A DNA stretch of 11,863 bases from a virus (Duplodnaviria; Heunggongvirae; Uroviricota; Caudoviricetes), in the IMG/VR virus record IMGVR_UViG_2693429779_000014, positions 1 to 11,863 of that record; one strand, written 5' to 3'. This document shows positions 1-11,863 of this stretch, piece by piece. A program made the translations under genes and the position numbers. Below the pieces are notes generated by a model. That model saw only the letters and a list, made by a program, of their open reading frames with translations. It ran no database searches and was not told where the DNA came from. How positions within the stretch are numbered: position 1 is the first letter of the stretch; the number at the start of each line of letters is the position of its first letter.

Positions 1-183
1 TACACTAAATCAGTAAGTTGGCAGCATCACCCCGCCACAGAACAATTATTGCTTTTGCCGTTGATGACAATAAAGTTTTTATCGCAGGCGTATACCACGG
101 TGGGCAAATCTATGAAACCGATTTTTTATCCAGTGCACCGTAAAACCCCCATCCTTCAGGGCGTGGCGGATATCAAACTTTGG

Positions 184-1266
184 TCATTTTCTCTGGCTGA
201 TCTTTACCGGATAACCATCCCGAAGATCAATTAAGTGCTCCGGTTCAGAAGCAAACCATGCATAAGATCCCCACGCCAATTCTGGTATTGCCTTTTTAAA
301 AGGCAGAGCACTTCTGTCCATAAATGCCGTAAGGAATGCAAGATTTTTCTCGCTGAACCCAGCGTCAATAGCCAAATGAGTGAGAGTAACTTTTCGTTCC
401 CTGTTTATAGGCCCATCTGTCGCAACTACTTCAGTGAAAACTACAAGCATGTCCGAACCCGTTCGGTCCTCTCCCAAATCAATCAAAATAATATCTGGAA
501 GTGCTTTTGAGGCATCAATATTCAGCCCCAATGCTTTTGCCAATACATCATCCTGAGCAACAACTTTATTCCCGGATTCAGACAACCAGAGCACAGTTGG
601 ATTCTTAAGAAAATTAGGAGCAAAAACTTCGATGACGGCCTTAGCTATTGTACTTGACGGGCCCGGAGCTAAAGTTCTCTTCTCTCCATTTGGGAAAGTG
701 ACGACTACGGCATCAGCAGCAATCACTGCCCCTGATTTCAATAAACGCAACCTAGCAAGAGCGGCTTTGTTCAAATGATTTTCTTGCCAGGAACTTATTG
801 CACTCAGCAGCGAATCTCCTTCAAGCCCGGCATCAAAGAGTGCTGCAAAAGAGCGATTCAAACTGTAACGAGGACGAGAGGATGTGGTGGGTATACCTTT
901 ACGCTCAACAATTGCATTGCAAGGTATTAGGCCATTTTTTATAGTTTCATCACGTATTGGCTCACGCGTATTTTCCGCATACCATGCATCAGCAGGCCTT
1001 ATCTTTTGTTTAGAGAAAGTCATCTTTACCCAGCTTTCTCTGGACGCATCATCAGTAAGAGCAGCCTGCGAATCTCCCATACTTACAACCTGGCTGGGCC
1101 TTATCCATCGCCCCAGCCCCTCAACCGCACCAGCATAAAACATGACAAAAATTGTTTTTGCAGCTATTTCCCGAATTAAATATCCACGATTCTCAGTCCC
1201 TTCAGGGAAAATTAATTGTAATCTTTCCCGGATAACATTCAATGGGGGAACAACAGGCAGATTCAT
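184..1266 (-). CDS. Unassigned 360-aa partner of the adjacent methyltransferase; putative restriction endonuclease-like protein (possibly BsuBI/PstI-like, not verifiable here)
   Basis: 360-aa minus-strand ORF. Its ATG (1266-1264) overlaps the TGA stop (1265-1263) of the upstream methyltransferase gene (ATGA), and a GGAG lies about 10 nt upstream inside the MTase 3' end. No catalytic motif can be assigned with certainty; the stretch DIILIDLGEDRTGSDMLVVFTEVVATD is compatible with a PD-(D/E)xK-type core. The functional call rests on operon context. Confidence 0.45.
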   Translation of the reverse strand: MNLPVVPPLNVIRERLQLIFPEGTENRGYLIREIAAKTIFVMFYAGAVEGLGRWIRPSQVVSMGDSQAALTDDASRESWVKMTFSKQKIRPADAWYAENTREPIRDETIKNGLIPCNAIVERKGIPTTSSRPRYSLNRSFAALFDAGLEGDSLLSAISSWQENHLNKAALARLRLLKSGAVIAADAVVVTFPNGEKRTLAPGPSSTIAKAVIEVFAPNFLKNPTVLWLSESGNKVVAQDDVLAKALGLNIDASKALPDIILIDLGEDRTGSDMLVVFTEVVATDGPINRERKVTLTHLAIDAGFSEKNLAFLTAFMDRSALPFKKAIPELAWGSYAWFASEPEHLIDLRDGYPVKISQRK

Positions 1267-3095
1267 GCAATCATCACTCCATAGAAACCAGCGATAGTTC
1301 TCTCAATAATCCGTCTGTGGACGCCAGCATCAATTAACGATTGAATCTCCATCACCTGCTCCAGAGAAGGCAACGGGATTGAATTCAATTCATAGGCCGA
1401 AACAGCAACACTTCCGCTTATACACCTGAACGCCCGATCGACAACATGCGAATTAAGTAGCATATCAATAACATCAGGGCGAACCGCAGAGAACAATCCG
1501 TTTGAATATACAATATTAATATGGTTTTCAACTACTACGCCACCAGTTTCATCTATAAATCCCTGAGGTAAAATTGCCGCTAAAATCCTTCTGTCCTGTT
1601 CCTTCGATGTTGTCCGCTGAACAAGCACACATTCAGATTTTGTCACAAGGAAACCCTGTTGTGGGGTTATATCGATATAGGGAACATGATTTTTTCTGTC
1701 TGCACTAAAACGAAAACCAGCTGAAGTTATTGATTCCGCCCAGACTAATGGGTAGCTATTTTTTCCTTTCGTCGTACGCAACTGCGACTTAAATCGATTC
1801 CAGACTAACTGACCTGTAGAGACTGAGTATCCCAGATCAGCTAAACGCGTAGACATCTGTTTTAATACATTAAGAAAACAGGCATCATCTTTAACGCGTG
1901 GCAAAAGCCACGTTGCTCCACCTTTTTCTATATCAACATTACCTATTTTCTCAATTTTTGCTTTGTTCAACCCCTTAGGGACAAGTGAGGATACCTGGGC
2001 CCGAACTTTATGTTCTCCCGCCTTGAATGCTGTCAACATTGTTTCCTGGAGAACATCGTCAAAGACCCCATCCCTGTCAGTGACGAAATCAAGGGCATAC
2101 GGAGTAGTTTTTTCGGTCAAAAGGGTTCGCAGCGCGGTGAAATACTGCCCACCAAGAAAAGAAGTTGGCGTAAGAAATGCAATAACTCCTGTTTTCTCTT
2201 TAACCATGCGAACAGCTAAGTCGGTGAACAATCCATATAGATTTGCATGACCAAATAACGAACGAGAATATTTTTCTCTCGTTTTAATATCGAGAGTGAC
2301 ACGTCCGTAAGGCGGATTCCCTACCACAAGATCATAACCAGAAAATTTATCTTGCTGAAGCGCATCAGCAACAATAATTGTATCTTCAGGCAATCTACGT
2401 TTTACCTTTACACATAGTGGCATTAGTACAGATTCGAGCAATACCAAACTCATCCAAGCCGCAAATGGATCGATTTCTATCCCCTTTAAACGACGACTGA
2501 TTCTCCTCAACATCCATTCAGGGGAAGACCCCTTGTCTTTTTTTAACATTCGAATGGCTACTGGTGCCAAAAATGCACCGCCACCACACGCAGGATCAAT
2601 AACCGATGCATGAGAAAAATCAACACCAGACTTTTCAGCCAGGTCCAAGAGACGCGCTACCAAAGGTGGGGGGGTATAGTAAGCCCCCAATTCCGAACGG
2701 TAAGCGGATGGCAGCATTACCGTATAAATTGACCCAATCAGATATCCAGCGTCCTCCGCCGGAAATTGAGCAATAAGCTCACCTGTTCGTTCAGCGAGCT
2801 CGCGTGCATCACATGGAATGTCTTCTATGTAAACAGTGTGCGGTACTGCCCTCATTTTAATGCTGCTTTTTTGCTTTTTTGCAAGGGTATCCCAATATGC
2901 AGCTACGATGCTGAAGCAGTATGAGCGGGCATGCATCAACCTTGACTGCCCGGTTTTGTAATTGCCCGCATAACCTTTGGCCATGGCTTTACAAGTTTGA
3001 TATCTTTCCAGATTAGAAAACTCATTATCTGTAAAAAAATCAAAATGTTGCACATTCATAATGTAAAATCCTAATGTATCAAACATGCGGGCCAT
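1263..3095 (-). CDS. N6-adenine DNA methyltransferase, gamma-class (Eco57I/TaqI-like catalytic domain with a C-terminal target-recognition region of about 250 aa)
   Basis: The translation carries GAYYTPP, then the SAM-binding motif I VIDPACGGGAFL, then the catalytic motif IV DLVVGNPPYG, in gamma-class order. The first ATG is at 3095; a better-placed start is the ATG at 3059 (MNVQHF...), which has AGGA 9 nt upstream. Confidence 0.85.
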   Translation of the reverse strand: MARMFDTLGFYIMNVQHFDFFTDNEFSNLERYQTCKAMAKGYAGNYKTGQSRLMHARSYCFSIVAAYWDTLAKKQKSSIKMRAVPHTVYIEDIPCDARELAERTGELIAQFPAEDAGYLIGSIYTVMLPSAYRSELGAYYTPPPLVARLLDLAEKSGVDFSHASVIDPACGGGAFLAPVAIRMLKKDKGSSPEWMLRRISRRLKGIEIDPFAAWMSLVLLESVLMPLCVKVKRRLPEDTIIVADALQQDKFSGYDLVVGNPPYGRVTLDIKTREKYSRSLFGHANLYGLFTDLAVRMVKEKTGVIAFLTPTSFLGGQYFTALRTLLTEKTTPYALDFVTDRDGVFDDVLQETMLTAFKAGEHKVRAQVSSLVPKGLNKAKIEKIGNVDIEKGGATWLLPRVKDDACFLNVLKQMSTRLADLGYSVSTGQLVWNRFKSQLRTTKGKNSYPLVWAESITSAGFRFSADRKNHVPYIDITPQQGFLVTKSECVLVQRTTSKEQDRRILAAILPQGFIDETGGVVVENHINIVYSNGLFSAVRPDVIDMLLNSHVVDRAFRCISGSVAVSAYELNSIPLPSLEQVMEIQSLIDAGVHRRIIERTIAGFYGVMIA

Positions 3096-3309
3096 AACAT
3101 CTCATGGTGGCGCATAGCAAACTGGCCCGAAGAATATCACGCACCAAGTCGATCTCATAACCCGTTATGACAATAAATCTTTGTAGCTGAACTCACTTGG
3201 TGATTTGTCAATCATTCCTGGCCTCCAGTTCGTCCTGAATCTCTTTATCGAGTTCACCGTATTTGTTAGTCCTCATCACTCACGACTTGACTTCCAGAAA
3301 TAACCTTGA

Positions 3310-3645
3310 TTATTCGGGGCTATATTTTGTCACCCTGCGTATCCGCGCTTTCGCATTACGCTCAATCTGGATTAGCTTTTCTATATTTTTTCGCCTTTCC
3401 CGCTCCTCCTGGCGCAAGAGCCTTACATCATCTGCCAGTCTGGTTTCTCTTTTCGCCACAGAGAGCATCCAGTCAAATGGCTCCACAACTGCACCGCAAA
3501 TTTTACAGCGGACCTGACGCTCTTTTTCGTCAACCCGGACAGAGGCGTGATGGCAATATGGTCTTTCCGATGGCTCATAAAGAAAATTAACCTGATTACG
3601 AGGGTTATCCTCTTTTACCGGAAATAAAACACTGAAATTCTGCAA
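3310..3645 (-). CDS. Hypothetical protein, probably the 3' remnant of a gene truncated by the IS3-associated deletion; contains a Cys/His cluster (CHH...CKIC)
   Basis: 111-aa ORF whose first codons (3645 down to about 3620) lie in IS-derived sequence, so the native N-terminus is likely lost. No recognisable family; the C-terminal half is Arg/Glu-rich and looks coiled. Confidence 0.25.
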   Translation of the reverse strand: MQNFSVLFPVKEDNPRNQVNFLYEPSERPYCHHASVRVDEKERQVRCKICGAVVEPFDWMLSVAKRETRLADDVRLLRQEERERRKNIEKLIQIERNAKARIRRVTKYSPE

Positions 3646-3741
3646 CTGCGTAAGGCGTTAAATGAAGCTCGCCTTGAGCGAGATATATTAAAAAAAGCAA
3701 CAGCGTATTTTGCACAGGAGTCGCTGAAAAATACGCGTTAA
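3620..3741 (+). pseudogene. IS3-family orfA, 3' fragment only
   Basis: Only about 40 C-terminal codons of OrfA are present; an upstream in-frame stop sits at 3617-3619. Confidence 0.6.
3690..3697 (+). promoter_or_regulatory. A7G slippery run in the orfA/orfB overlap (programmed -1 frameshift signal typical of IS3-family elements)
   Basis: AAAAAAAG at 3690-3697 lies where the orfA frame (stop 3739-3741) and the orfB frame (open from 3678) overlap. Confidence 0.5.
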
Positions 3742-3776
3742 TCGAACAATGGCGACAACAATTTCCCATTGAAGCG

Positions 3777-4595
3777 ATGTGTCAGGTATTTGGTGTATCC
3801 AGGAGCGGTTATTACAACTGGGTACAGCATGAACCCTCAGACAGAAAACAAAGTGATGAGCGGCTAAAACTGGAGATTAAGGTGGCACATATCCGCACTC
3901 GCGAAACATATGGAACCCGGCGGCTCCAGACGGAGCTGGCAGAGAATGGCATCATCGTTGGTCGTGACCGACTGGCACGTCTTCGTAAGGAGCTAAGGCT
4001 ACGCTGTAAGCAGAAACGCAAGTTCAGAGCGACTACGAACTCGAACCACAATCTGCCAGTTGCGCCAAATCTGCTGAACCAGACGTTCGCTCCTACAGCA
4101 CCAAATCAGGTCTGGGTGGCGGACCTGACGTATGTTGCCACACAGGAGGGATGGTTGTACCTCGCTGGCATCAAAGATGTTTATACGTGCGAAATTGTCG
4201 GCTACGCCATGGGAGAGCGCATGACAAAAGAGCTGACAGGTAAAGCCCTGTTTATGGCGCTCAGGAGCCAGCGCCCACCTGCCGGGCTAATCCACCACTC
4301 TGATCGAGGTTCACAGTACTGCGCATACGATTACCGGGTCATACAGGAGCAGTCTGGTCTGAAAACATCAATGTCGCGTAAAGGTAACTGTTACGACAAC
4401 GCTCCGATGGAAAGCTTCTGGGGAACGCTGAAAAATGAGAGCCTGAGCCACTATCGTTTTAATAACCGGGATGAAGCCATCTCAGTAATACGGGAATACA
4501 TTGAGATTTTCTACAATCGTCAGCGTCGTCACTCTCGTCTGGGGAATATCTCCCCGGCAGCCTTCAGGGAAAAATATCATCAGATGGCTGCTTAA
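3777..4595 (+). CDS. IS3-family transposase OrfB (DDE integrase catalytic core)
   Basis: 272 aa from the first ATG; the frame is open from 3678, consistent with expression as an OrfAB fusion. Contains the D..D..E context (...VWVADLTYV..., ...HHSDRGSQY..., ...YDNAPMESFWGTLKNE...) and the C-terminal ...RQRRHSRLGNISPAAFREKY. Confidence 0.85.
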   Translation: MCQVFGVSRSGYYNWVQHEPSDRKQSDERLKLEIKVAHIRTRETYGTRRLQTELAENGIIVGRDRLARLRKELRLRCKQKRKFRATTNSNHNLPVAPNLLNQTFAPTAPNQVWVADLTYVATQEGWLYLAGIKDVYTCEIVGYAMGERMTKELTGKALFMALRSQRPPAGLIHHSDRGSQYCAYDYRVIQEQSGLKTSMSRKGNCYDNAPMESFWGTLKNESLSHYRFNNRDEAISVIREYIEIFYNRQRRHSRLGNISPAAFREKYHQMAA

Positions 4596-5008
4596 AAAAA
4601 GAACAAATGGTAGTGTCCGCTATTGCCAGTACACCTCATAGCTTCGCTCTTCCGGCACTCGCGACAGATTATATTCAGGCGCCTGTCGTAGCGGCGTATT
4701 TCTCCGTCTGGTAATGACCAGATAAGGTCAGGATCAACCACAACCGGTTTCTTCACCTTTACCCTCGATAGCTTTTTGCGGGCGTTTTGCCAGTCTTTAT
4801 GAGCCTGTTCAGAGGGAAATACCCCGTAGCCAGAATTATATACATCACCACTTGCGACCAGTTCTATGCATAAGCGACCGACAGACGCACGACTGATACC
4901 TGTTTCATCTGACAACTGCCGAATCGTGACCCGACCGTCCTGATGCACGAGTTCCACAATTCGCGTCTTCAGTTCTTCCCGCTGTTCGGGAGTAAAAGGT
5001 TTCGCCAT
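4592..5008 (-). CDS. Ren-like phage protein, copy A; 3' end altered next to the IS
   Basis: Starts MAKPFTPEQREEL... with AGGAGG upstream. Paralogous to the 5907..6389 ORF through ...DPDLIWSLPDGEIRRYDR..NIICRECRKSE, after which the two diverge. The ECRKSE region resembles the ECRQSAAMKRVL C-terminus I recall for lambda Ren (from memory). Confidence 0.5.
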   Translation of the reverse strand: MAKPFTPEQREELKTRIVELVHQDGRVTIRQLSDETGISRASVGRLCIELVASGDVYNSGYGVFPSEQAHKDWQNARKKLSRVKVKKPVVVDPDLIWSLPDGEIRRYDRRLNIICRECRKSEAMRCTGNSGHYHLFFF

Positions 5009-5022
5009 AAATCCTCCTGAAA

Positions 5023-5769
5023 CTACTTAACAACCCTCGAATGGCTAACATTCGGACGCCAGCTCTCCCAGTTAAAATTCACCCAGCGCCCGCCGTTCAT
5101 GACCATGCGATCCATCACCCGCTCGCCGAGCAATGTTTTCATCACCTCATAGTTCAGGTTTGTCAGCATCCCCACGCTGCGCATCGACGCTGTCCGGCGA
5201 TCAACAATCTGGTGCAGCACCACCTGCTCGTTTTTCGTCTCGCGCTGAATGCCAATTTCATCAAGAACCAGCAGATCCACTTCGCACAGCTCCCGCAAAA
5301 ATTTTTCGCCTGACTGCCCGTCGTCATAGCTGGCGTGCAGGGCGCTCATAACATCAGCCACGGTAACCACAATCACTGTCTGACCGTCTTTCAGCAGGCG
5401 ATTCCCGATAGCTGCCGCTAAGTGATTCTTCCCGGTACCAGGTTTTCCGCTGAACGCAAAATTTGTACACCCGGTCATCAGTTCATCGGCGATGGATTTC
5501 GCCTGGCTTAACGCGTATCGCTGGCCGTCGTTCTGCACCTGGTAATTCGCAAACGAGCATTTACGGTGCAACGGCTGGATGCCTGAGCGATTCAGAATTT
5601 TTTCCACCCGCAACTGGCGATTCAGGCGGTTGATCTCCTCGCTACGTTTCTGGCCTTCAGCAAGTTGCCACTCGCGCCACTCCGCTACCGTTCTGAATGG
5701 GGCGGTTACATGTGGCGGGGTCAGTCGGCGGATGCGTTCCAGAACGCCGCCTGTCGCAATATTTTTCAT
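5023..5769 (-). CDS. DnaC-like AAA+ helicase loader (phage replication protein), copy A
   Basis: 248 aa. Walker A FSGKPGTGKNHLAAAIG and Walker B DLLVLDEIG, with end-to-end collinearity to the E. coli DnaC sequence as I recall it (...NRSGIQPLH...CSFANY...MLTNLN...LGERVMDRM...). GGGGG-type SD upstream. Confidence 0.9.
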   Translation of the reverse strand: MKNIATGGVLERIRRLTPPHVTAPFRTVAEWREWQLAEGQKRSEEINRLNRQLRVEKILNRSGIQPLHRKCSFANYQVQNDGQRYALSQAKSIADELMTGCTNFAFSGKPGTGKNHLAAAIGNRLLKDGQTVIVVTVADVMSALHASYDDGQSGEKFLRELCEVDLLVLDEIGIQRETKNEQVVLHQIVDRRTASMRSVGMLTNLNYEVMKTLLGERVMDRMVMNGGRWVNFNWESWRPNVSHSRVVK

Positions 5770-5775
5770 GGTCCG

Positions 5776-6000
5776 TTACCCCCTGAAGCCTGGCGGGATC
5801 GCACTGTCCGGCAACGAGACGGTGTTAACCTGTCGGAGCAACGTCTCAGGCCGAACACCTTTCGGCGCGAACAGGCCCTGGTATTCATTGGCGATGCTGT
5901 GTCGAATCACCTGCTCAGGTGTAAAACCCTGCTGACGGAATTTTTCCAGTTCCCGTATCGCCCCGTTAGCGCCCTGCTCCGTTCGAATCGGTTTTCGCAA
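5776..6000 (-). pseudogene. 3' remnant of a second initiator gene (DnaT-like C-terminal domain only)
   Basis: The 74-aa frame ends ...VNTVSLPDSAIPPGFRG*, matching the C-terminus of the full-length initiator at 7905..8969 (...VNHISEPDTEIPPGFRG*). The N-terminal domain and iteron region are missing. It sits 6 nt upstream of DnaC-like copy A, the same spacing as in the intact module. Confidence 0.6.
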
Positions 6001-6389
6001 TGCCTGAGTACACGCTGCATAACTTCACTCTTCCGGCACTCGCGACAGATTATGTTCTGATGTCTGTCGTAGCGGCGTATTTCTCCGTCTGGTAATGACC
6101 AGATAAGGTCAGGATCAACCACAGATGGTTTCTTCAGATTTGCCCTTGAGAGTTTTTTGCGGGCGTTTTGCCAGTCCTTACGAGCCTGTTCAGACGGGAA
6201 TAACCCGTAGCCAGAGTTGTATACATCCCCACTGGCAACCAGCTCTCTGGCGAGAACGCTTATTAAATATCTTGTCGCCCCGGTTTTAGCTTCCAGTTGT
6301 CGTAACGTCTCGCGCCCACTCTGGCGTACGAGTTCAACAACCTGCCCCTTAATTTTTTCCCGCTCTTCCTGTGTAAATACTTTTGCCAT
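5907..6389 (-). CDS. Ren-like phage protein, copy B
   Basis: Start at ATG 6389 (MAKVFTQEEREKIK...), 15 nt after the upstream gene's stop. Contains ...ECRKSEVMQRVL..., but the frame then reads on into the initiator remnant with no stop until 5907, so the 3' end is probably not native. Confidence 0.55.
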   Translation of the reverse strand: MAKVFTQEEREKIKGQVVELVRQSGRETLRQLEAKTGATRYLISVLARELVASGDVYNSGYGLFPSEQARKDWQNARKKLSRANLKKPSVVDPDLIWSLPDGEIRRYDRHQNIICRECRKSEVMQRVLRHCENRFERSRALTGRYGNWKNSVSRVLHLSR

Positions 6390-6404
6390 AAGCGCCCCCG
6401 GCAA

Positions 6405-7130
6405 TCACTTTTCCGACACAATACGACCGGAGGAATCGACAATCTGTCGAACAATATCCCGGTGCTTGTTCAGCTCCCGCAACGCGGCGCAGACACGCTC
6501 CCACTTCTGGACATGACTTTTCGCCCGACGCAGTTCGCGGTTTGCCATATGCAGCGATGGTAAAACCAGGTCATCCGCTTGCGTTTCGGTGAACGATGGC
6601 AACGACTGCACAATGTCCGCCACAGTTTCTGTTTTAATTTCTTCCTGTGTTGCAGCTTCCTGTACCGGTAACGCAACACCTGCTGGCTGAGGAAAGACTT
6701 TACCATCCGTTTCCGCTATGGATGCGGCTTTCGGCTCTGCCGGTAAATCAGCGCCCGGTATGCAGTACCGAAATTTACCGCCCTGATTCACGCGAATCAG
6801 ACGCCCTTTGCTGATTGCCATGGCCAGCGATGAATTCGCCCGGCGGGAGGTAATCCCGAACATCAGTGCCAGCTCATCCGCCGTTTGTGGGCCATGTTGT
6901 TCAATCGCCTCAGTCAGCATTTGCGCTGTCACTTTCGGTACCGGTGACACTGGTTCACTTTCACCAGCCTGAATCAGCCACCACATCGAACCCTTGTTAT
7001 CCGCTTCACCACGGCGCTTCAGTTTCCACAGTTCGTTGACCGCATCTTCACGGCTGATTCCAAGGCGGGACGCCACCACATGTGAAGAGGCTCTTTTCAG
7101 TGCTTTCAGTGCGTCAAATACAGTTTCCAT
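6405..7130 (-). CDS. Hypothetical phage protein with two N-terminal winged-helix-like segments and an acidic linker
   Basis: The six-frame track starts at 7148 (TTG), but the ATG at 7130 ([12 protein letters not shown]...) has GGAGG 8 nt upstream. Two wHTH-like segments (...[24 protein letters not shown]... and ...[31 protein letters not shown]...). Lies between the DnaC-like and Ren-like genes. Confidence 0.6.
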
Positions 7131-7151
7131 TAAAACATCCTCCAACAAAAA

Positions 7152-7898
7152 TTACTTCACAACTCCCGGAAAGCTGACATTTGAACGCCAGCTATCCCAG
7201 TTAAACGTCACCCACCGACAACCGTTCATGGTCATGCGGTCCATAATCCTCTCACCAAGAAGCGTGCTCATTGCGGCATGATTCAGGTTTGTTAACATCC
7301 CGACACTGCACAGTGATGCTGTCCGGCGATCAATTATCTGGTGCAATACCACCTGCTCGTTTTTCGTCTCCCGCTGAATGCCTATTTCATCCAGGACCAG
7401 CAAATCAACCCCGCAAAGCTCCTGTAAAAATTTTTCACCGGATTTGCCGTTGTCGTAGCTGTCATGCAACACGCTCATGACATCAGACTCGGTGACGATA
7501 ATCACGCTGCGCCCCTTCGCCATCAGCCGGTTACCCATCGCCGCTGCAAGGTGATTTTTCCCGGTGCCGGTTTTACCGCTGAACACAAAATTCGTGCACC
7601 CGGTCATCAGTTCGTCAGCTATGGATTTGGCCTGGCTCAGCGCGTATTTTTGCCCGTCGTTCTGCACCTGATAATTCGCAAACGAGCATTTGCTGTGCAG
7701 AGGCTGGATGCCCGAACGATTCAGGATTTTTTCCACCCGCAACTGGCGATTCTGGCGGTTAATCTCCTCGCTGCGTTTTCGTCCTTCAGCAAGTTGCCAT
7801 TCCCGCCACTCCTCCACCGTCCGGTACGGTGGAACCGCCCCCTGTGGTGCAAGTCTGTGAATACGTTCAAGAACCCCGGCTGCCGCAATGTTTTTCAT
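7152..7898 (-). CDS. DnaC-like AAA+ helicase loader (phage replication protein), copy B
   Basis: 248 aa. Walker A FSGKTGTGKNHLAAAMG and Walker B DLLVLDEIG; about 85% identical to copy A at protein level but with many synonymous DNA differences. Starts 6 nt after the initiator stop. Confidence 0.9.
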   Translation of the reverse strand: MKNIAAAGVLERIHRLAPQGAVPPYRTVEEWREWQLAEGRKRSEEINRQNRQLRVEKILNRSGIQPLHSKCSFANYQVQNDGQKYALSQAKSIADELMTGCTNFVFSGKTGTGKNHLAAAMGNRLMAKGRSVIIVTESDVMSVLHDSYDNGKSGEKFLQELCGVDLLVLDEIGIQRETKNEQVVLHQIIDRRTASLCSVGMLTNLNHAAMSTLLGERIMDRMTMNGCRWVTFNWDSWRSNVSFPGVVK

Positions 7899-7904
7899 GC
7901 CACA

Positions 7905-8969
7905 TCACCCCCTGAATCCCGGCGGAATTTCGGTATCCGGTTCAGAAATATGATTCACACAACGCTGGTTGTTCGTGCCGCTTACCGGGAGCAACCAGGG
8001 GTTTTCAAAATTCCGGTCCGGCCCAAAAAACGTCGTCGCTCGCTGAACAAATTCCGTTCCCGCTTTCCCGGTCGCCGCCAGGTATCTCGCGTAACGCCTC
8101 ACACCATCCAGCATGGTCTCTGGTGGCACCCCCTCGCGCAATCTGGCCTTCCAGGCACTGAATGCGGATTTCTTCGGGTTTGCCCCGGCACGCAACGGGT
8201 ATTCCCGCCAGACCTGTTCGAACACATCCGGATAATCCACTCGTCCCACAGGCTGCCCGGTGTTTTCCGGGGCTACCCGATCGGCTTCCCGCTGAATGGC
8301 GGAATCGGCTTCAGGCTGCTGCAGTTGGAGTGATTGCTCCGGCCTTGCGGTCATCACCTGCTGCACAGCGCCCGAATCGGCTTTCAGCGCATACGCTGAA
8401 TCGGCTTCCGGTGTCGAGCCTGCTGGCTGACCAGGATTGACGGTCTGAACATCCCCTGCCTGGTTCGTGGCGTTTTTTACGCCATGGACCATAGTGTTTT
8501 GATCTTCTTTATCTGTATCTTTATCTGTATCTGTCGTGACTCGTCGTGACATGTGCGTGACATTTCGTGACGCGCCGTGACAATCGCCATTTTGTTCCCG
8601 CTTTCTTTCCCTCTCTCGCTGCGCCCTCTTGCGCTCTGCAGGAGATTTTGCGGTTTGCGAAATATTGCCGTTGTCCTCTTTAAGCACCTGGCGTTTTTCC
8701 CATCCAGTGATTAAATCACCATCAAGTACCCGCCCCTGCATCGTCTGCAAAATTGAATCAATTACCTCTTCTGTCACGTCGAGCGCACTTGCCAAATCTT
8801 CTGTCGTGACATCAATGTGACCTCGCGTGACATTTCGTGACGCGCTCACCAGGAGGTGGATATACACTGCCATCACTGTTGCAATTGGCTGCCCTGACAC
8901 CCTGGCAATTGTTCGCCACTTAGGGTCATTTGGCATGTCATGCCATAATCTGAGCCAGGCGTTAGCCAT
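7905..8969 (-). CDS. Phage replication initiator-like protein (YdaU-like N-terminal domain, low-complexity linker, DnaT-like C-terminal domain)
   Basis: The track starts at GTG 8975; the ATG at 8969 (MANAWLRLWHDMPNDPKW...) has GAGG 5 nt upstream. The C-terminus ...SEPDTEIPPGFRG matches the end of E. coli primosomal protein DnaT as I recall it. The gene body contains the iteron clusters listed below, and a DnaC-like gene follows immediately. Confidence 0.75.
   Translation of the reverse strand: MANAWLRLWHDMPNDPKWRTIARVSGQPIATVMAVYIHLLVSASRNVTRGHIDVTTEDLASALDVTEEVIDSILQTMQGRVLDGDLITGWEKRQVLKEDNGNISQTAKSPAERKRAQRERERKREQNGDCHGASRNVTHMSRRVTTDTDKDTDKEDQNTMVHGVKNATNQAGDVQTVNPGQPAGSTPEADSAYALKADSGAVQQVMTARPEQSLQLQQPEADSAIQREADRVAPENTGQPVGRVDYPDVFEQVWREYPLRAGANPKKSAFSAWKARLREGVPPETMLDGVRRYARYLAATGKAGTEFVQRATTFFGPDRNFENPWLLPVSGTNNQRCVNHISEPDTEIPPGFRG
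8535..8581. repeat. Iteron cluster 2: five direct CGTGAC repeats at 10-11 bp phasing, preceded by the tandem repeat TTTATCTGTATC x2 (8508-8531)
   Basis: CGTGAC begins at 8535, 8545, 8556, 8566 and 8576, all in the same orientation. The cluster is inside the initiator's linker-coding region. Confidence 0.55.
8805..8845. repeat. Iteron cluster 1: four direct (C/T)GTGAC repeats at 10-11 bp phasing, plus one inverted copy (GTCACG, 8773-8778)
   Basis: The repeats begin at 8805, 8816, 8826 and 8836. The 21-mer GCGTGACATTTCGTGACGCGC is exactly repeated at 8825-8845 and 8555-8575. Confidence 0.5.
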
Positions 8970-9040
8970 ACTCACCTCTTCTGATACCGAATCTTTTTAC
9001 TCACGAGTTGCCGGGAGCGATTCGATATGGCTATTGTCAG

Positions 9041-9466
9041 TCAATGTACTGCCACAGCATTTCCTGCCGGGCCACCACGGTTCATCTGATTGAAACCGGC
9101 GATTGCCACTGCGACAAAATCATCAGCGTCTCTCACCAGTCGTTCATGCGTCTCCACCAGTTCCCGAAAATAAGCTGAACTGTGGCTGCGCATTCGAGCC
9201 ACCAGCGGAGGTGGCATTGCCCTTTCGATCGCAGGTAACAACGCCTGAATTTTTTCAACAGCGTCAGGGGTGTCTTTATCCAGCCAACGGAAAATCTTTT
9301 GGGTGTTGAGATAAAGCGTGTTGTGCTTGCTGTCGTTATGCAGAACCGGAAACGTCATTCCCAGTTCGAAATAAACCCTGGTTATTTCAGCTGCCGGAAC
9401 TTTTTCACCGTCCGGATGCGCCCAGGCTTTCATCGCCATGCGGATGTGTTCATGCTTGATTTTCAT
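9041..9466 (-). CDS. YdaT-like protein (occupies the CII position after the Cro-like gene)
   Basis: 141 aa starting MKIKHEHI.... Its ATG overlaps the TGA of the upstream Cro-like gene (ATGA at 9463-9466). The position and order match the ydaS-ydaT-ydaU-ydaV arrangement of Rac-type prophages as I recall it. Confidence 0.55.
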   Translation of the reverse strand: MKIKHEHIRMAMKAWAHPDGEKVPAAEITRVYFELGMTFPVLHNDSKHNTLYLNTQKIFRWLDKDTPDAVEKIQALLPAIERAMPPPLVARMRSHSSAYFRELVETHERLVRDADDFVAVAIAGFNQMNRGGPAGNAVAVH

Positions 9467-9726
9467 GAATCAACCCCCGCCGATGGTTGTGTGTTAGCCT
9501 GAAACTCAGCAGGCAAGCCGTCAGTTGGGTTGGGGTAGGTTTTACTGTCAATCTCATGTGGGGTCACCACCCATCCCGTTGCTTCACACCAACGTAATAT
9601 TTTTTCTCCTGTAAGTTTTGCACGCCCCGTTATAACGTGGCTGACCATCCCTTGGGATGCGCCAACAATCTCAGCAAATGAACTCTGGGTTATATGAAAA
9701 TGATGCAAATATTCTCCAAGATTCAT
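9463..9726 (-). CDS. Cro-like / YdaS-like small HTH regulator
   Basis: The track starts at 9753 (TTG). The ATG at 9726 (MNLGEYLHHFHITQSSFAEIVGASQGMVSHVITG...) has GGGCGGA upstream. It shows an HTH pattern (SQ..A...G.SQ..VS) and is divergent from the repressor gene. Confidence 0.7.
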   Translation of the reverse strand: MNLGEYLHHFHITQSSFAEIVGASQGMVSHVITGRAKLTGEKILRWCEATGWVVTPHEIDSKTYPNPTDGLPAEFQANTQPSAGVDS

Positions 9727-9762
9727 AATCCGCCCTATGTGATGTGTTACCAATGCATAATT

Positions 9763-9825
9763 AATAGCACTGTTATTTTTAAAAGTAAATAGTGATGCTA
9801 TTTCAAAGTGATTAGCAATCTTATT
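9763..9825. promoter_or_regulatory. OR-like region: three operator-like 15-bp sites with divergent promoters
   Basis: Sites AATAGCACTGTTATT (9763-9777), AATAGTGATGCTATT (9788-9802) and a weaker ATTAGCAATCTTATT (9811-9825), spaced 24-25 bp. Rightward promoter candidates: -35 TTTCAA (9801-9806) and -10 TAGAAT (9825-9830). Leftward candidates: -35 TTTACT (complement of 9784-9789) and -10 TATTAA (complement of 9761-9766). Confidence 0.5.
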
Positions 9826-9837
9826 AGAATTGGATGT

Positions 9838-10338
9838 ATGAAAAGAAAATCATTGTCAGACACCGACCTCAACGCCGCCAGAAGACTGAAAGAAATCTGG
9901 ATGGCAAAGAAATCTCAGTTGGGATTGACTCAGGAACGTGCGGCGGAAATTATGGGGTTTTCAACACAAGGGGCGGTAAGTCACTACCTAAATGGTCAAA
10001 CCCCACTAAACCTTGAGGCTGTTCTAAAGTTTGCTGGCTTACTGAAAGTTCCCCCTGAGTCAATCAGGCCAGACATGGTAGATTTGCTGCAAATTGCAAG
10101 GATGTATTGTCGAGAACCACAGCAAGATAACATAGTCGCATTACCAGCAGACACAGAACAAACAGAGGATGAACTACCGTTTGCCGTAGAGCCGATGGAA
10201 CGAGATTTAATCCATACGTTCAGAGCTTTTCCGAAAGAAGATCAAGAACACATGCTTCAGGAGATGAAAGATAAAAAAGAATCAATGGATCGTACGGTTG
10301 CGCGGTGGTTAGCTGCACAAAAAGGCCGTCGCGCCTAA
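9838..10338 (+). CDS. cI/PaaR-like HTH (XRE-family) repressor; candidate prophage immunity repressor and regulator of the downstream toxin-antitoxin pair
   Basis: The track starts at GTG 9808; the ATG at 9838 (MKRKSLSDTDLNAARRLKEIWMAKKSQLGLTQERAAEIMGFSTQGAVSHYLNG...) gives 166 aa. It has an N-terminal HTH (LTQERAAEIMGFSTQGAVSHY), is divergent from the Cro-like gene, and carries an acidic C-terminal region. Confidence 0.7.
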   Translation: MKRKSLSDTDLNAARRLKEIWMAKKSQLGLTQERAAEIMGFSTQGAVSHYLNGQTPLNLEAVLKFAGLLKVPPESIRPDMVDLLQIARMYCREPQQDNIVALPADTEQTEDELPFAVEPMERDLIHTFRAFPKEDQEHMLQEMKDKKESMDRTVARWLAAQKGRRA

Positions 10339-10357
10339 ATCAGAGGAGATATGTAAA

Positions 10358-10552
10358 ATGAGTACAGTCCTTTCCCCAATGGTTTCAGAATTTGAGACAG
10401 TTGAGCAAGAAAATAGTTACAACGAATGGCTGCGGGCCAAAGTAGCAGCAAGCCTCGCGGATCCCCGCCCGGCGATTCCGCATGATGAGGTAATGGCGGA
10501 AATGGAACAAATTATTGCCCAAATTGCTGCTGCAACTCACAGAGGTGAATAA
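10358..10552 (+). CDS. Small antitoxin, PaaA2-like (partner of the ParE-family toxin)
   Basis: 64 aa with GAGGAG 7 nt upstream. The stop overlaps the toxin start (TAATG at 10550-10554). The sequence ...SPMVSEFETVEQENSYNEWLRAKVA... resembles the PaaA2 antitoxin of E. coli O157 prophages as I recall it. Confidence 0.6.
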   Translation: MSTVLSPMVSEFETVEQENSYNEWLRAKVAASLADPRPAIPHDEVMAEMEQIIAQIAAATHRGE

Positions 10553-10842
10553 TGTTACCCGTTTTATGGCTACCATCTGCTCGTGATGATTTGCGCCAGA
10601 TCGTAGCCTACATAGCTAAAGAAAATCCCGCGGCAGCACGCAGAATGAAAATTCGAATTGAAACATCCGTTTTGCCGCTCACAGAGCATCCTTACCTGTA
10701 TCCTCCAAGCGAGCGAGTTCTTGGTCTTCGTGAAATTGTAACTCATCCTAACTACATCATCCTTTACCGAGTAACAGCATCAAGCATAGAAGTAGTAAAT
10801 ATTGTGCATTCTCGAAGACAGTATCCAGGCAAAAACAGTTAA
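10552..10842 (+). CDS. parE: ParE/RelE-superfamily toxin (ParE2-like)
   Basis: 96 aa with the characteristic pattern W.P.A..DL..I..YIA..NP.AA......I......L...P..G.......GLREIV.....I.LYRV......V..I.H.RR. Translationally coupled to the upstream antitoxin. Confidence 0.8.
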   Translation: MLPVLWLPSARDDLRQIVAYIAKENPAAARRMKIRIETSVLPLTEHPYLYPPSERVLGLREIVTHPNYIILYRVTASSIEVVNIVHSRRQYPGKNS

Positions 10843-10858
10843 TTATTCCCGCCGACAG

Positions 10859-10884
10859 AACCACCTTAGGGTGGTTTTTTCTTG
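10859..10884 (+). terminator. Intrinsic (Rho-independent) terminator of the repressor-antitoxin-toxin operon
   Basis: Stem AACCACC (10859-10865), loop TTAG, stem GGTGGTT (10870-10876), then a T-tract (10877-10880), 17 nt after the ParE stop. Confidence 0.7.
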
Positions 10885-10898
10885 CCCCAACAAAAAAC

Positions 10899-10940
10899 AA
10901 TAGCGATGCTATTTACATCAAAAAAAATAATGATGCTATT
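10899..10940. promoter_or_regulatory. OL-like region: two operator-like 15-bp sites with a candidate rightward promoter
   Basis: AATAGCGATGCTATT (10899-10913, a perfect AATAG-N5-CTATT palindrome) and AATAATGATGCTATT (10926-10940), spaced 27 bp. A -35-like TTTACA (10912-10917) overlaps the first site, as at the OR-like region; the -10 is not clear. Confidence 0.45.
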
Positions 10941-11121
10941 GTTTCAGGCGTCAACCCACCCCGCCCCACAGAATGCAGGGCAATACTTCGAGTTACCAGA
11001 CAGTGGTCAGGGGTTAAGTAGCCAGCCCGAGGCGTAAGAACATGACGGCAGGGTTCAATCTTTAACTATGCAGCAGGTTTTTTGTTCCGCCACCCCGGCG
11101 TTAAGGGGAAATGAGGTCAGC

Positions 11122-11274
11122 ATGGATACTATCGATCTTGGCAACAACGAATCTCTGGTGTGCGGCGTGTTCCCTAACCAGGATGGAACGTTTACCGCCA
11201 TGACGTATACCAAAAGCAAAACGTTTAAAACCGAATCTGGCGCGCGTTGCTGGTTAGCCAGAAACACTGACTGA
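11122..11274 (+). CDS. Hypothetical small protein (50 aa), first gene of the candidate early-left operon
   Basis: ATG at 11122 with GAGG 5 nt upstream (MDTIDLGNNESLVCGVFPNQDGTFTAMTYTKSKTFKTESGARCWLARNTD). The track's longer version (11068) lacks an SD. Confidence 0.4.
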   Translation: MDTIDLGNNESLVCGVFPNQDGTFTAMTYTKSKTFKTESGARCWLARNTD

Positions 11275-11285
11275 TGAGGCTGACG

Positions 11286-11651
11286 ATGGAATTTAAAGAT
11301 TTACCGTCTGATGTACAGAAAACAGCAGCTCATACATTGCATTCTGTGCTGCGAGAAATCGGGAAAGATATTGCAAGCGAGCCAGCAAAAGATCTGGCCC
11401 GGAAAATCAAGACCGCTTTCGTTGAGCTTTATAATGTTGGCACTGACTCTGAAACTGTCGAGACCAAGACCGTAAGTTCACCAATATTCTCACTTGAGCC
11501 AAGCGTATTATCAGGTGAAATATGCACCGAGATTTCCAGCGAACTGCTTCCGGTAATACGAGAAGCAATTCGCCGTCGCGGTTTGGATGGAAGTTATGAT
11601 CATGACGTTCTGCAAGTTCTCAGGACAATGGTGACTTCACTGGGGATTTGA
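11286..11651 (+). CDS. Hypothetical protein (121 aa)
   Basis: ATG at 11286 (MEFKDLPSDVQKTAAHTL...) with GAGG 6 nt upstream, 9 nt after the stop of the upstream small ORF. No family recognised. Confidence 0.5.
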   Translation: MEFKDLPSDVQKTAAHTLHSVLREIGKDIASEPAKDLARKIKTAFVELYNVGTDSETVETKTVSSPIFSLEPSVLSGEICTEISSELLPVIREAIRRRGLDGSYDHDVLQVLRTMVTSLGI

Positions 11652-11863
11652 TCCCTGCGTCCTCTAAGCTTTTGATATAGCGGTCCTCCAAGAAGCGGTA
11701 AATTTTGTCGAAATCATCTTTTCCCTCTGGTTTATTCAGAGGATTACAGGACCCGTAAGTAGCGGCATACATTTCAACCGTTTGGTAATGACTCCAACTT
11801 ATTGGTAGTGTTTTATGTTCAGATAATGCCCGATGACTTTGTCATGCAGCTCCACCGATTTTG

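Follow-up and report, generated by a model that had tools for sequence, protein, structure and literature searches.

A candidate replication origin of a CP-933P/Sp12-like prophage, built of helically phased repeats within the gene of its own initiator

The 11,863-nucleotide (nt) stretch formed by positions 1 to 11,863 of the IMG/VR virus record IMGVR_UViG_2693429779_000014 (here, at its full length, the window) encodes on its minus strand a replication initiator whose gene contains two arrays of short repeats and an AT-rich run. Judged by its sequence and by analogy with characterized phage origins, this region most probably represents the origin from which a CP-933P/Sp12-like lambdoid prophage replicates, placed inside the very gene that encodes its initiator; cluster B of the repeats and the AT-rich run (8497-8581) are taken as the candidate origin core. 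The initial annotation had proposed an iteron-type origin within the initiator gene, as in phage lambda, and the proposal gains support from repeats that are not a product of the encoded peptide, from an AT-rich run kept throughout the family, and from a geometry shared with the lambda ori. Both clusters and the run lie, as that annotation had placed them, within the minus-strand open reading frame (ORF) 7905-8975. The repeat is written here on the gene strand as GTCACG, which reads CGTGAC on the plus strand. The elements concerned are the following:

7905-8969, minus strand: initiator gene, 354 amino acids (aa) from its ATG, in ORF 7905-8975.
8805-8841, minus strand: iteron cluster A, with GTCACG at gene nt 129, 139, and 160 and GTCACA at nt 149 (span nt 129-165).
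8773-8778, plus strand: single inverted iteron copy (gene nt 192-197, GAC GTG ACx, peptide D-V-T).
8535-8581, minus strand: iteron cluster B, part of the candidate origin core, with five GTCACG at gene nt 389, 399, 409, 420, and 430 (span nt 389-435).
8497-8534, minus strand: AT-rich, purine-rich run, candidate DNA-unwinding element (gene nt 436-473, ACAGATACAGATAAAGATACAGATAAAGAAGATCAAAA).
8461-8491, no strand assigned: imperfect palindrome with 13-nt arms and a 5-nt loop, just past the AT-rich run.

The five copies of cluster B are all exact, with plus-strand starts at 8535, 8545, 8556, 8566, and 8576 (spacing 10, 11, 10, and 10), in agreement with the count and the 10-11-bp spacing first reported. 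They occupy codons 130-145, in an interdomain linker predicted to be disordered. Cluster A, initially described as four copies, retains its phased slots (spacing 11, 10, and 10); only three of its copies are exact (8805, 8826, and 8836), and the fourth slot is filled by the one-mismatch variant TGTGAC at 8816. It corresponds to codons 43-55 (peptide SRNVTRGHIDVT), where the winged-helix domain passes from the end of helix 1 through a loop into strand 1. The inverted copy at 8773-8778, an addition to the initial list, encodes D64-V65-T66 at the N-terminal cap or start of the putative recognition helix, and is seen again at nt 192 in most loci of the GTCACG class. Altogether the window contains 11 CGTGAC copies against 4.7 expected (a number reached in 0 of 200 shuffles); nine of them lie within 310 bp (five in cluster B, three in cluster A, and the inverted one) and two elsewhere. 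An exact 21-bp repeat, GCGTGACATTTCGTGACGCGC, is found once in each cluster (8555-8575 and 8825-8845), as had been noticed, and an 11-bp repeat, TCTGTCGTGAC, keeps the identical 270-bp register. Helical phasing of the distance between the clusters is weak (R 0.35-0.49; p=0.02-0.12 for unique distances). The arrays thus present a short motif in one orientation, helically phased, enriched, and conserved at the DNA level, which are the general marks of an iteron-type origin.

The hexamer is read in all three frames (as V-T, x-H, and S-R), and the peptide VTxCHxxSRNVT is what results when a GTCACG recurring every 10 nt is translated. In recodings of the first 480 nt of the gene that leave the protein unchanged, synonymous resampling yields a mean of 0.67 copies (maximum 5) and permutation of the gene's own codons a mean of 1.47 (maximum 7), as opposed to eight observed; this number was reached in 0 of 20,000 trials under either scheme. 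The same constraint is visible at synonymous sites across 20 species, whose loci range in G+C content from 0.34 to 0.69. Codons within the hexamers are nearly invariant (GTC ACG 100%, GGT CAC 100%, TCA 95%), with a codon entropy of 0.32 bits compared with 1.46 bits for conserved residues elsewhere, which use many codons (p=1.7e-5). Codon 65, part of the inverted copy, is GTG in 100% of these species, while positions in the spacers of the cluster are free to vary, the third base of Arg49 being one example. GTCACG is therefore a DNA-level element held at 10-11-bp phasing, and phased repeats of this kind are maintained as DNA, despite the latitude left by synonymous codons, in more than 50 bacterial species. 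The check suggested in the initial annotation, namely whether homologous genes keep the phasing at synonymous positions, is answered in the affirmative by the frozen codons of the 20 species and by phased clusters in about 55 homologues.

Relatives of the N-terminal domain are found at 66 species-level loci in Enterobacterales, Pseudomonas, many Betaproteobacteria, sphingomonads, and Acidobacteria, and the domain family comprises about 900 clusters at 50% identity (E<=1e-10). The layout of phased repeats followed by a purine-rich AT run is kept in about 55 of the 60 homologous genes from these loci. Nearly every homologue carries three to seven phased hexamer copies at gene nt ~340-490, with a purine-rich run of the form (AGATAA/AGATAC/AGAGAA)n starting 0-15 nt past the cluster corresponding to B; most have another such array at nt ~129-165. 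Measured in 53 homologues, the minimum 30-nt G+C content lies 0.29 below the gene mean just after cluster B, compared with 0.08 upstream (Wilcoxon p=6e-10).

In the window, the AT run encodes TDTDKDTDKEDQ, and the peptide following the iterons includes TDTDKDTDKED. Purines make up 29 of the 38 nucleotides on the gene strand, and the G+C content drops as low as 0.37 when averaged over 60 nt and 0.25 over 36 nt, less than anywhere else within the initiator/loader coding block. The AT-richer tandem repeat that had been reported beside the cluster is recovered by Tandem Repeats Finder at 8506-8532 (period 12, 2.2 copies, 100% match), together with this drop in G+C. Among close E. coli relatives (80 viral contigs, too alike to be informative in other respects), insertions and deletions alter the number of AGATAA hexamers in the run. 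By composition and conservation only, the run corresponds to the AT-rich unwinding element generally expected beside iterons. It contains a single GATC at 8501-8504; a GATC (Dam) site also stands at the distal end of the run in many homologues (L007, L013, L022, L027, L045, L153, and L001; context GATAAAGATCTAAAA), and GATC is under-represented over the window as a whole (29 occurrences, 47 expected). A hairpin-capable palindrome 27-60 nt after the last iteron is enriched among the homologues, with a mean stem of 5.65 nt versus 4.57 nt in control windows (p=2e-4), and its stems vary in sequence from locus to locus; as evidence for an origin, the palindrome is supportive only. A promoter and terminator scan returned nothing exceeding the shuffle expectation, and a "terminator" called at 8461-8491 is this palindrome adjoining the AT run.

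The sequence of the repeat differs between clades, with the cores GTCACG, GTAACG, CGAACG(C), GTGACG, and ACTACG, all describable as NNN-ACG with a variable 5' triplet. In 45 of the 48 loci having both clusters, the triplet is the same in A and B (permutation mean 17.7, maximum 29). This NNN-ACG test replaces an earlier unsupervised hexamer concordance test (25 of 47 versus 11.5 expected), which was confounded by AT-run repeats and register shifts. In a trio of related Erwinia, Pantoea, and Enterobacter genes, sites that align in A and in B hold GTCACG in one gene and GTAACG in another, the switch between C and A affecting at least six aligned positions, inverted copies included; the Pantoea gene is mixed. 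Their sequences show a core switch in progress. Coding also leaves its trace on the spacing. A GTAACG placed in frame 2 would introduce a TAA stop codon, and that frame is used by 0 of 37 sites; spacing in the GTAACG class alternates between 10 and 11 nt, keeping to frames 0 and 1, and frame-2 slots hold GAAACG instead (loci L030 and L044).

The likely start codon of the initiator is the ATG at 8967-8969, behind the ribosome-binding site GAGGTG. The protein begins with a winged helix (aa 1-95) and a basic helix (aa 110-130); a disordered linker, encoded by cluster B and the AT run, connects these to a C-terminal domain whose DnaT/YdaU-like tail ends in IPPGFRG. High confidence attaches to aa 11-95 in the AlphaFold2 model, where three helices and a strand combine with a helix-turn-helix and a beta wing into a fold of the DnaD N-terminal type. 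The product matches PHROG 3729 ("replication initiation protein", E=3e-250) and, weakly, the replisome-organizer families PHROG 4880 (E=2e-5) and 5968 (E=4e-4). No Pfam match was obtained at E<=0.01, PF04492 and PF07120 included, and TIGR01714 ("replisome organizer N-terminal") scores 15.4 bits, below its cut-off of 49.8 (E=0.016). By its predicted model, the N-terminal domain belongs with the DnaD-like winged helices of replisome organizers. The initial annotation compared the locus to a YdaU/DnaT-DnaC-type module; the initiator is not of the YdaU type, its N-terminal domain being unrelated to DUF1376 and only its last ~19 residues matching YdaU of E. coli K-12. Homology to K-12 YdaU was rejected on these grounds (no PF07120 match, similarity confined to the last 19 residues), as was homology to lambda O (BLASTP E=0.15 in the low-complexity linker only, no PF04492 match). 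Of 5,426 complete E. coli genomes, 2,511 contain DNA matching the initiator gene, O145 and further Shiga toxin-producing strains among them; seven sequenced coliphages contain it as well.

The repeats always accompany the N-terminal winged helix, regardless of which C-terminal domain or neighboring genes are present. The C-terminal domain and the downstream gene vary (DnaC-like in about 5 of 60 loci, lambda-P-like or DnaB-like elsewhere); the winged helix, repeats, and AT run can therefore be regarded as a mosaic module, comparable to the N- and C-terminal halves of lambda O. Upstream neighbors also vary among the homologues and include a methyltransferase, a Rha-family regulator, and a hypothetical gene. 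In the complete genomes of phages Tritos and pAEv1818, the only GTCACG clusters are the two in the initiator gene; the N-terminal domain itself occurs in only 25 phage records, no model phage among them. Phage Tritos (L152, 32105-33638) and a Shigella flexneri locus (L002) encode a near-identical initiator followed by a small protein of ~140 aa, which is not a DnaC-like loader and which, in S. flexneri, resembles the DUF977 proteins of the window; a dedicated loader is therefore not always encoded beside the initiator. In three further loci (L149:4001-4546, L150:2100-2660, and L151:536-1096; proteins P0073 and P0060), the winged helix is fused to an HNH nuclease that replaces the linker and the C-terminal domain. 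In L150 and L151 the fusion gene stands directly upstream of a DUF1376 (YdaU-type) initiator. Such fusions might be origin-targeting nucleases or nickases.

An origin within an initiator gene is of a known kind. The origin of lambdoid phages, with its iterons and AT-rich tract, lies in the middle of O (PMC7466680). In the lambda record, four annotated iterons at O nt 349-433 are followed by ACACAAAAGACACTATTACAAAAGAAAAAAGAAAAGATTATT, encoding DTKDTITKEKRKD; here, the iterons at nt 389-435 are followed by the AT run, so that both position and orientation match the annotated lambda ori, as the initial comparison with lambda had suggested. In lambda and its variants in Shiga toxin (Stx) phages, as in the window, the origin occupies the middle of the initiator gene, between an origin-specific N-terminal and a loader-specific C-terminal domain. 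Sites in the same orientation are followed, in the direction of transcription, by an AT run whose coding strand is rich in purines and whose product is a linker rich in K, D, E, and T, and then by a palindrome. The operon order (PR, cro, cII, initiator, loader) is the same. On the other hand, the initiator has no sequence similarity to O, the second cluster lies within the coding sequence of the DNA-binding domain, and the loader is DnaC-like rather than P.

Another precedent is oriL of phage SPP1, where AB boxes and a DNA-unwinding element are embedded in the replisome-organizer gene 38 and are sufficient for replication in vitro (PMC5737612). G38P likewise represents an initiator of the replisome-organizer kind without an AAA+ domain, to which the DnaD-like winged-helix N-terminus and the weak TIGR01714 match correspond; in both systems, the repeats and the adjoining AT-rich element lie inside the initiator's own gene and a separate helicase loader is encoded downstream. 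The hosts here are Gram-negative, the TIGR01714 match is far below its cut-off, and the repeat sequence and architecture differ. In addition, no second distant origin of the oriR kind is seen in the two complete phage genomes, Tritos and pAEv1818. The rep genes of the lactococcal TP901-1 type are grouped with these SPP1 G38P/oriL-type systems.

The Rac prophage of E. coli K-12 has an active origin, oriJ (PMC3945230). Its operon (racR / ydaS-ydaT-ydaU-ydaV) is arranged in the same way, its initiator ends in the same tail, IPPGFRG, and a DnaC-like loader follows. The linker of Rac ydaU (L001:3472-3625) contains its own repeat, CAGATGTTCAA, in four copies (spacing 33, 33, and 12), and the GATAAAGATACAGATAAAGATC run that comes after them is the one seen in the window. 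The DUF1376 domain at the N-terminus of YdaU is unrelated to that of the initiator described here, and repeat sequence and spacing differ. From their sequence, the ydaU repeats may be the basis of oriJ.

The initiator gene is embedded in a recognizable lambdoid early region:

7152-7898, minus strand: DnaC-like helicase loader gene, directly downstream of the initiator gene (NF009043 499 bits, DnaC equivalog 296 bits, PHROG 50).
9041-9753, minus strand: upstream operon genes, CII/YdaT-like (9041-9466) and Cro/YdaS-like (9463-9753).
9808-10842, plus strand: paaR2-paaA2-parE2 toxin-antitoxin/repressor cassette, divergent from the Cro- and CII-like genes.

The window thus holds a DnaC/IstB-type AAA+ partner next to the initiator. 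No part of the window is poorer in G+C than the gap at 9754-9807 (0.17), which presumably accommodates the divergent promoters PR and PRM with their operators. This is a CP-933P/Sp12-type immunity region. In CP-933P, the region has been characterized experimentally: PaaR2, YdaS, and YdaT are the analogues of CI, Cro, and CII, and a replication gene "o" lies downstream of PR (PMC8630535).

Elsewhere in the window, a second, partial replication module without an origin is found on the minus strand at 4592-6404. A remnant of a K-12-type YdaU C-terminus (~5770-6005, ending in IPPGFRG) is joined out of frame to a DUF977 ORF (5907-6404) and is followed by a second DnaC-like gene (5023-5769), identical to the first in 201 of 249 residues, and by a second DUF977 gene (4592-5008). 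After this module comes an IS3-family transposase orfB (3777-4595, plus strand). The partial module looks like the result of recombination between two prophage replication regions. Low-G+C cargo on the minus strand at 184-3095 encodes a type II restriction-modification system, with a PstI/BsuBI-family endonuclease (184-1266) and an N6-adenine methyltransferase (1263-3095).

By analogy with lambda O/ori-lambda and SPP1 G38P/oriL, derepression would allow transcription from the PR-type promoter to produce the initiator. Its winged-helix domain would bind the phased repeats, with a monomer at each helical turn and all of them on the same DNA face, at the five sites of 8535-8581 and the four of 8805-8841, and the resulting oligomer would bend the DNA. 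Bending, supercoiling, and transcription could together open the AT run at 8497-8534, whereupon the C-terminal domain would recruit host DnaB through the DnaC-like loader (7152-7898). Transcription from that promoter, putatively placed in the 9754-9807 gap, would pass through the origin. The two clusters should not be equated, cluster B lying in the disordered linker beside the AT run and cluster A among the codons of the DNA-binding domain. Least certain in this scheme is what cluster A does: it could assist the origin as an auxiliary site by looping to cluster B, or be a self-binding site used in control.

Several observations weigh against an origin at this place, or at least against a part in it for every element. 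Lambda iterons are four, 18-19 bp long, palindromic, and ~20-24 bp apart, whereas the sites described here are direct cores of 6-7 bp, one per helical turn. The AT run is not the stretch of lowest G+C content in the window, and DnaA boxes are absent from the window even when one mismatch is allowed. The prophage looks rearranged, with its insertion sequence element and second partial replication module, so this copy need not be active. An incomplete search of the literature retrieved no published binding or replication experiment on any family member and no paper on this origin, and papers on Stx-phage replication types make no mention of iterons. Finally, ~230 bp separate cluster A from the AT run; 11 of 59 homologues lack the cluster, and it is retained, as four phased GTCACG with frozen codons, in the winged-helix-HNH genes, which have neither cluster B nor an AT run; it may therefore serve control and not initiation.

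Extended to both arrays, this becomes the best surviving alternative, namely that the repeats are initiator sites acting in autorepression, as a transcription roadblock, or in handcuffing control of copy number, with replication starting elsewhere. Plasmid iterons do serve both initiation and control, and both the position of cluster A inside the DNA-binding-domain coding sequence, far from the AT run, and its retention in the HNH fusions would suit such a role. However, cluster B is always joined to an AT/purine run and often to a palindrome, which is the signature of an unwinding element and not of an operator; the geometry is that of lambda and SPP1, and the two complete phage genomes offer no other repeat cluster. 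A purely regulatory function is accordingly considered unlikely. It is less likely still that the arrays are bound by another protein, such as terminase at a pac site, a partition or centromere-binding protein, a CII/YdaT-like regulator, or a host factor. Two sets of four to five direct ~11-bp repeats do resemble ParR-type centromeres, e.g., R1 parC, and pac sites can be intragenic, but the arrays stay with the winged-helix coding sequence while flanking genes change (DnaC-like, P-like, DnaB-like, or HNH downstream), no partition genes were found in the window, and the switching of the core between closely related hosts argues against a host factor. The explanation of the repeats as a by-product of a repeated or conserved peptide without any function at the DNA level (ASRNVT is present twice in the protein, and SRNVTRGH is conserved in many homologues) is rejected, so far as sequence analysis can decide, as having practically no chance of being right, because the hexamer occupies three frames and its copy number goes far beyond codon choice, exceeding all 20,000 protein-preserving recodings, synonymous sites are frozen only within the hexamers, the peptide shifts whenever the DNA core shifts in both clusters, and spacing in the GTAACG class is shaped by stop-codon avoidance.

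An origin within the initiator gene, probable as it is here, belongs to a known kind, and it is this origin family that appears to be undescribed in the literature searched. In that incomplete search no defined origin was found for this replicon type, and none was known to the initial annotation; the adjoining immunity switch has been studied (PMC8630535). Unusual in this origin family are the spacing of sites at one for each helical turn, the two-part layout that places a cluster among the codons of the DNA-binding domain, the existence of five or more specificity classes changed in concert, and a visible conflict between coding and binding. In the Erwinia/Pantoea clade, extra repeat copies lie inside the putative recognition helix, where the C-to-A core switch turns His into Asn. 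Taken with cluster A and the inverted copy, this raises the speculative and rather improbable idea that initiator sites are written into the codons of the initiator's own DNA-binding domain so that one nucleotide change alters both site and reader, or so that nascent protein loads in cis; the winged-helix-HNH fusions might then cut or nick the origins of competing phages. If true, the joint change of site and reader could drive the observed switches in origin specificity.

With matching DNA in nearly half of the complete E. coli genomes (2,511 of 5,426), the replicon reaches widely. A precise, testable fragment of ~120 bp and five natural specificity classes offer access to the question of how a winged-helix initiator without an AAA+ domain reads sites spaced one per turn and opens DNA. 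The region would find use in the annotation of prophage origins, in origin-decoy inhibition of induction, and in small conditional replicons. It also represents a case of overlapping codes, in which origin and protein use the same bases and reach compromises such as the avoidance of stop codons setting the spacing of the repeats.

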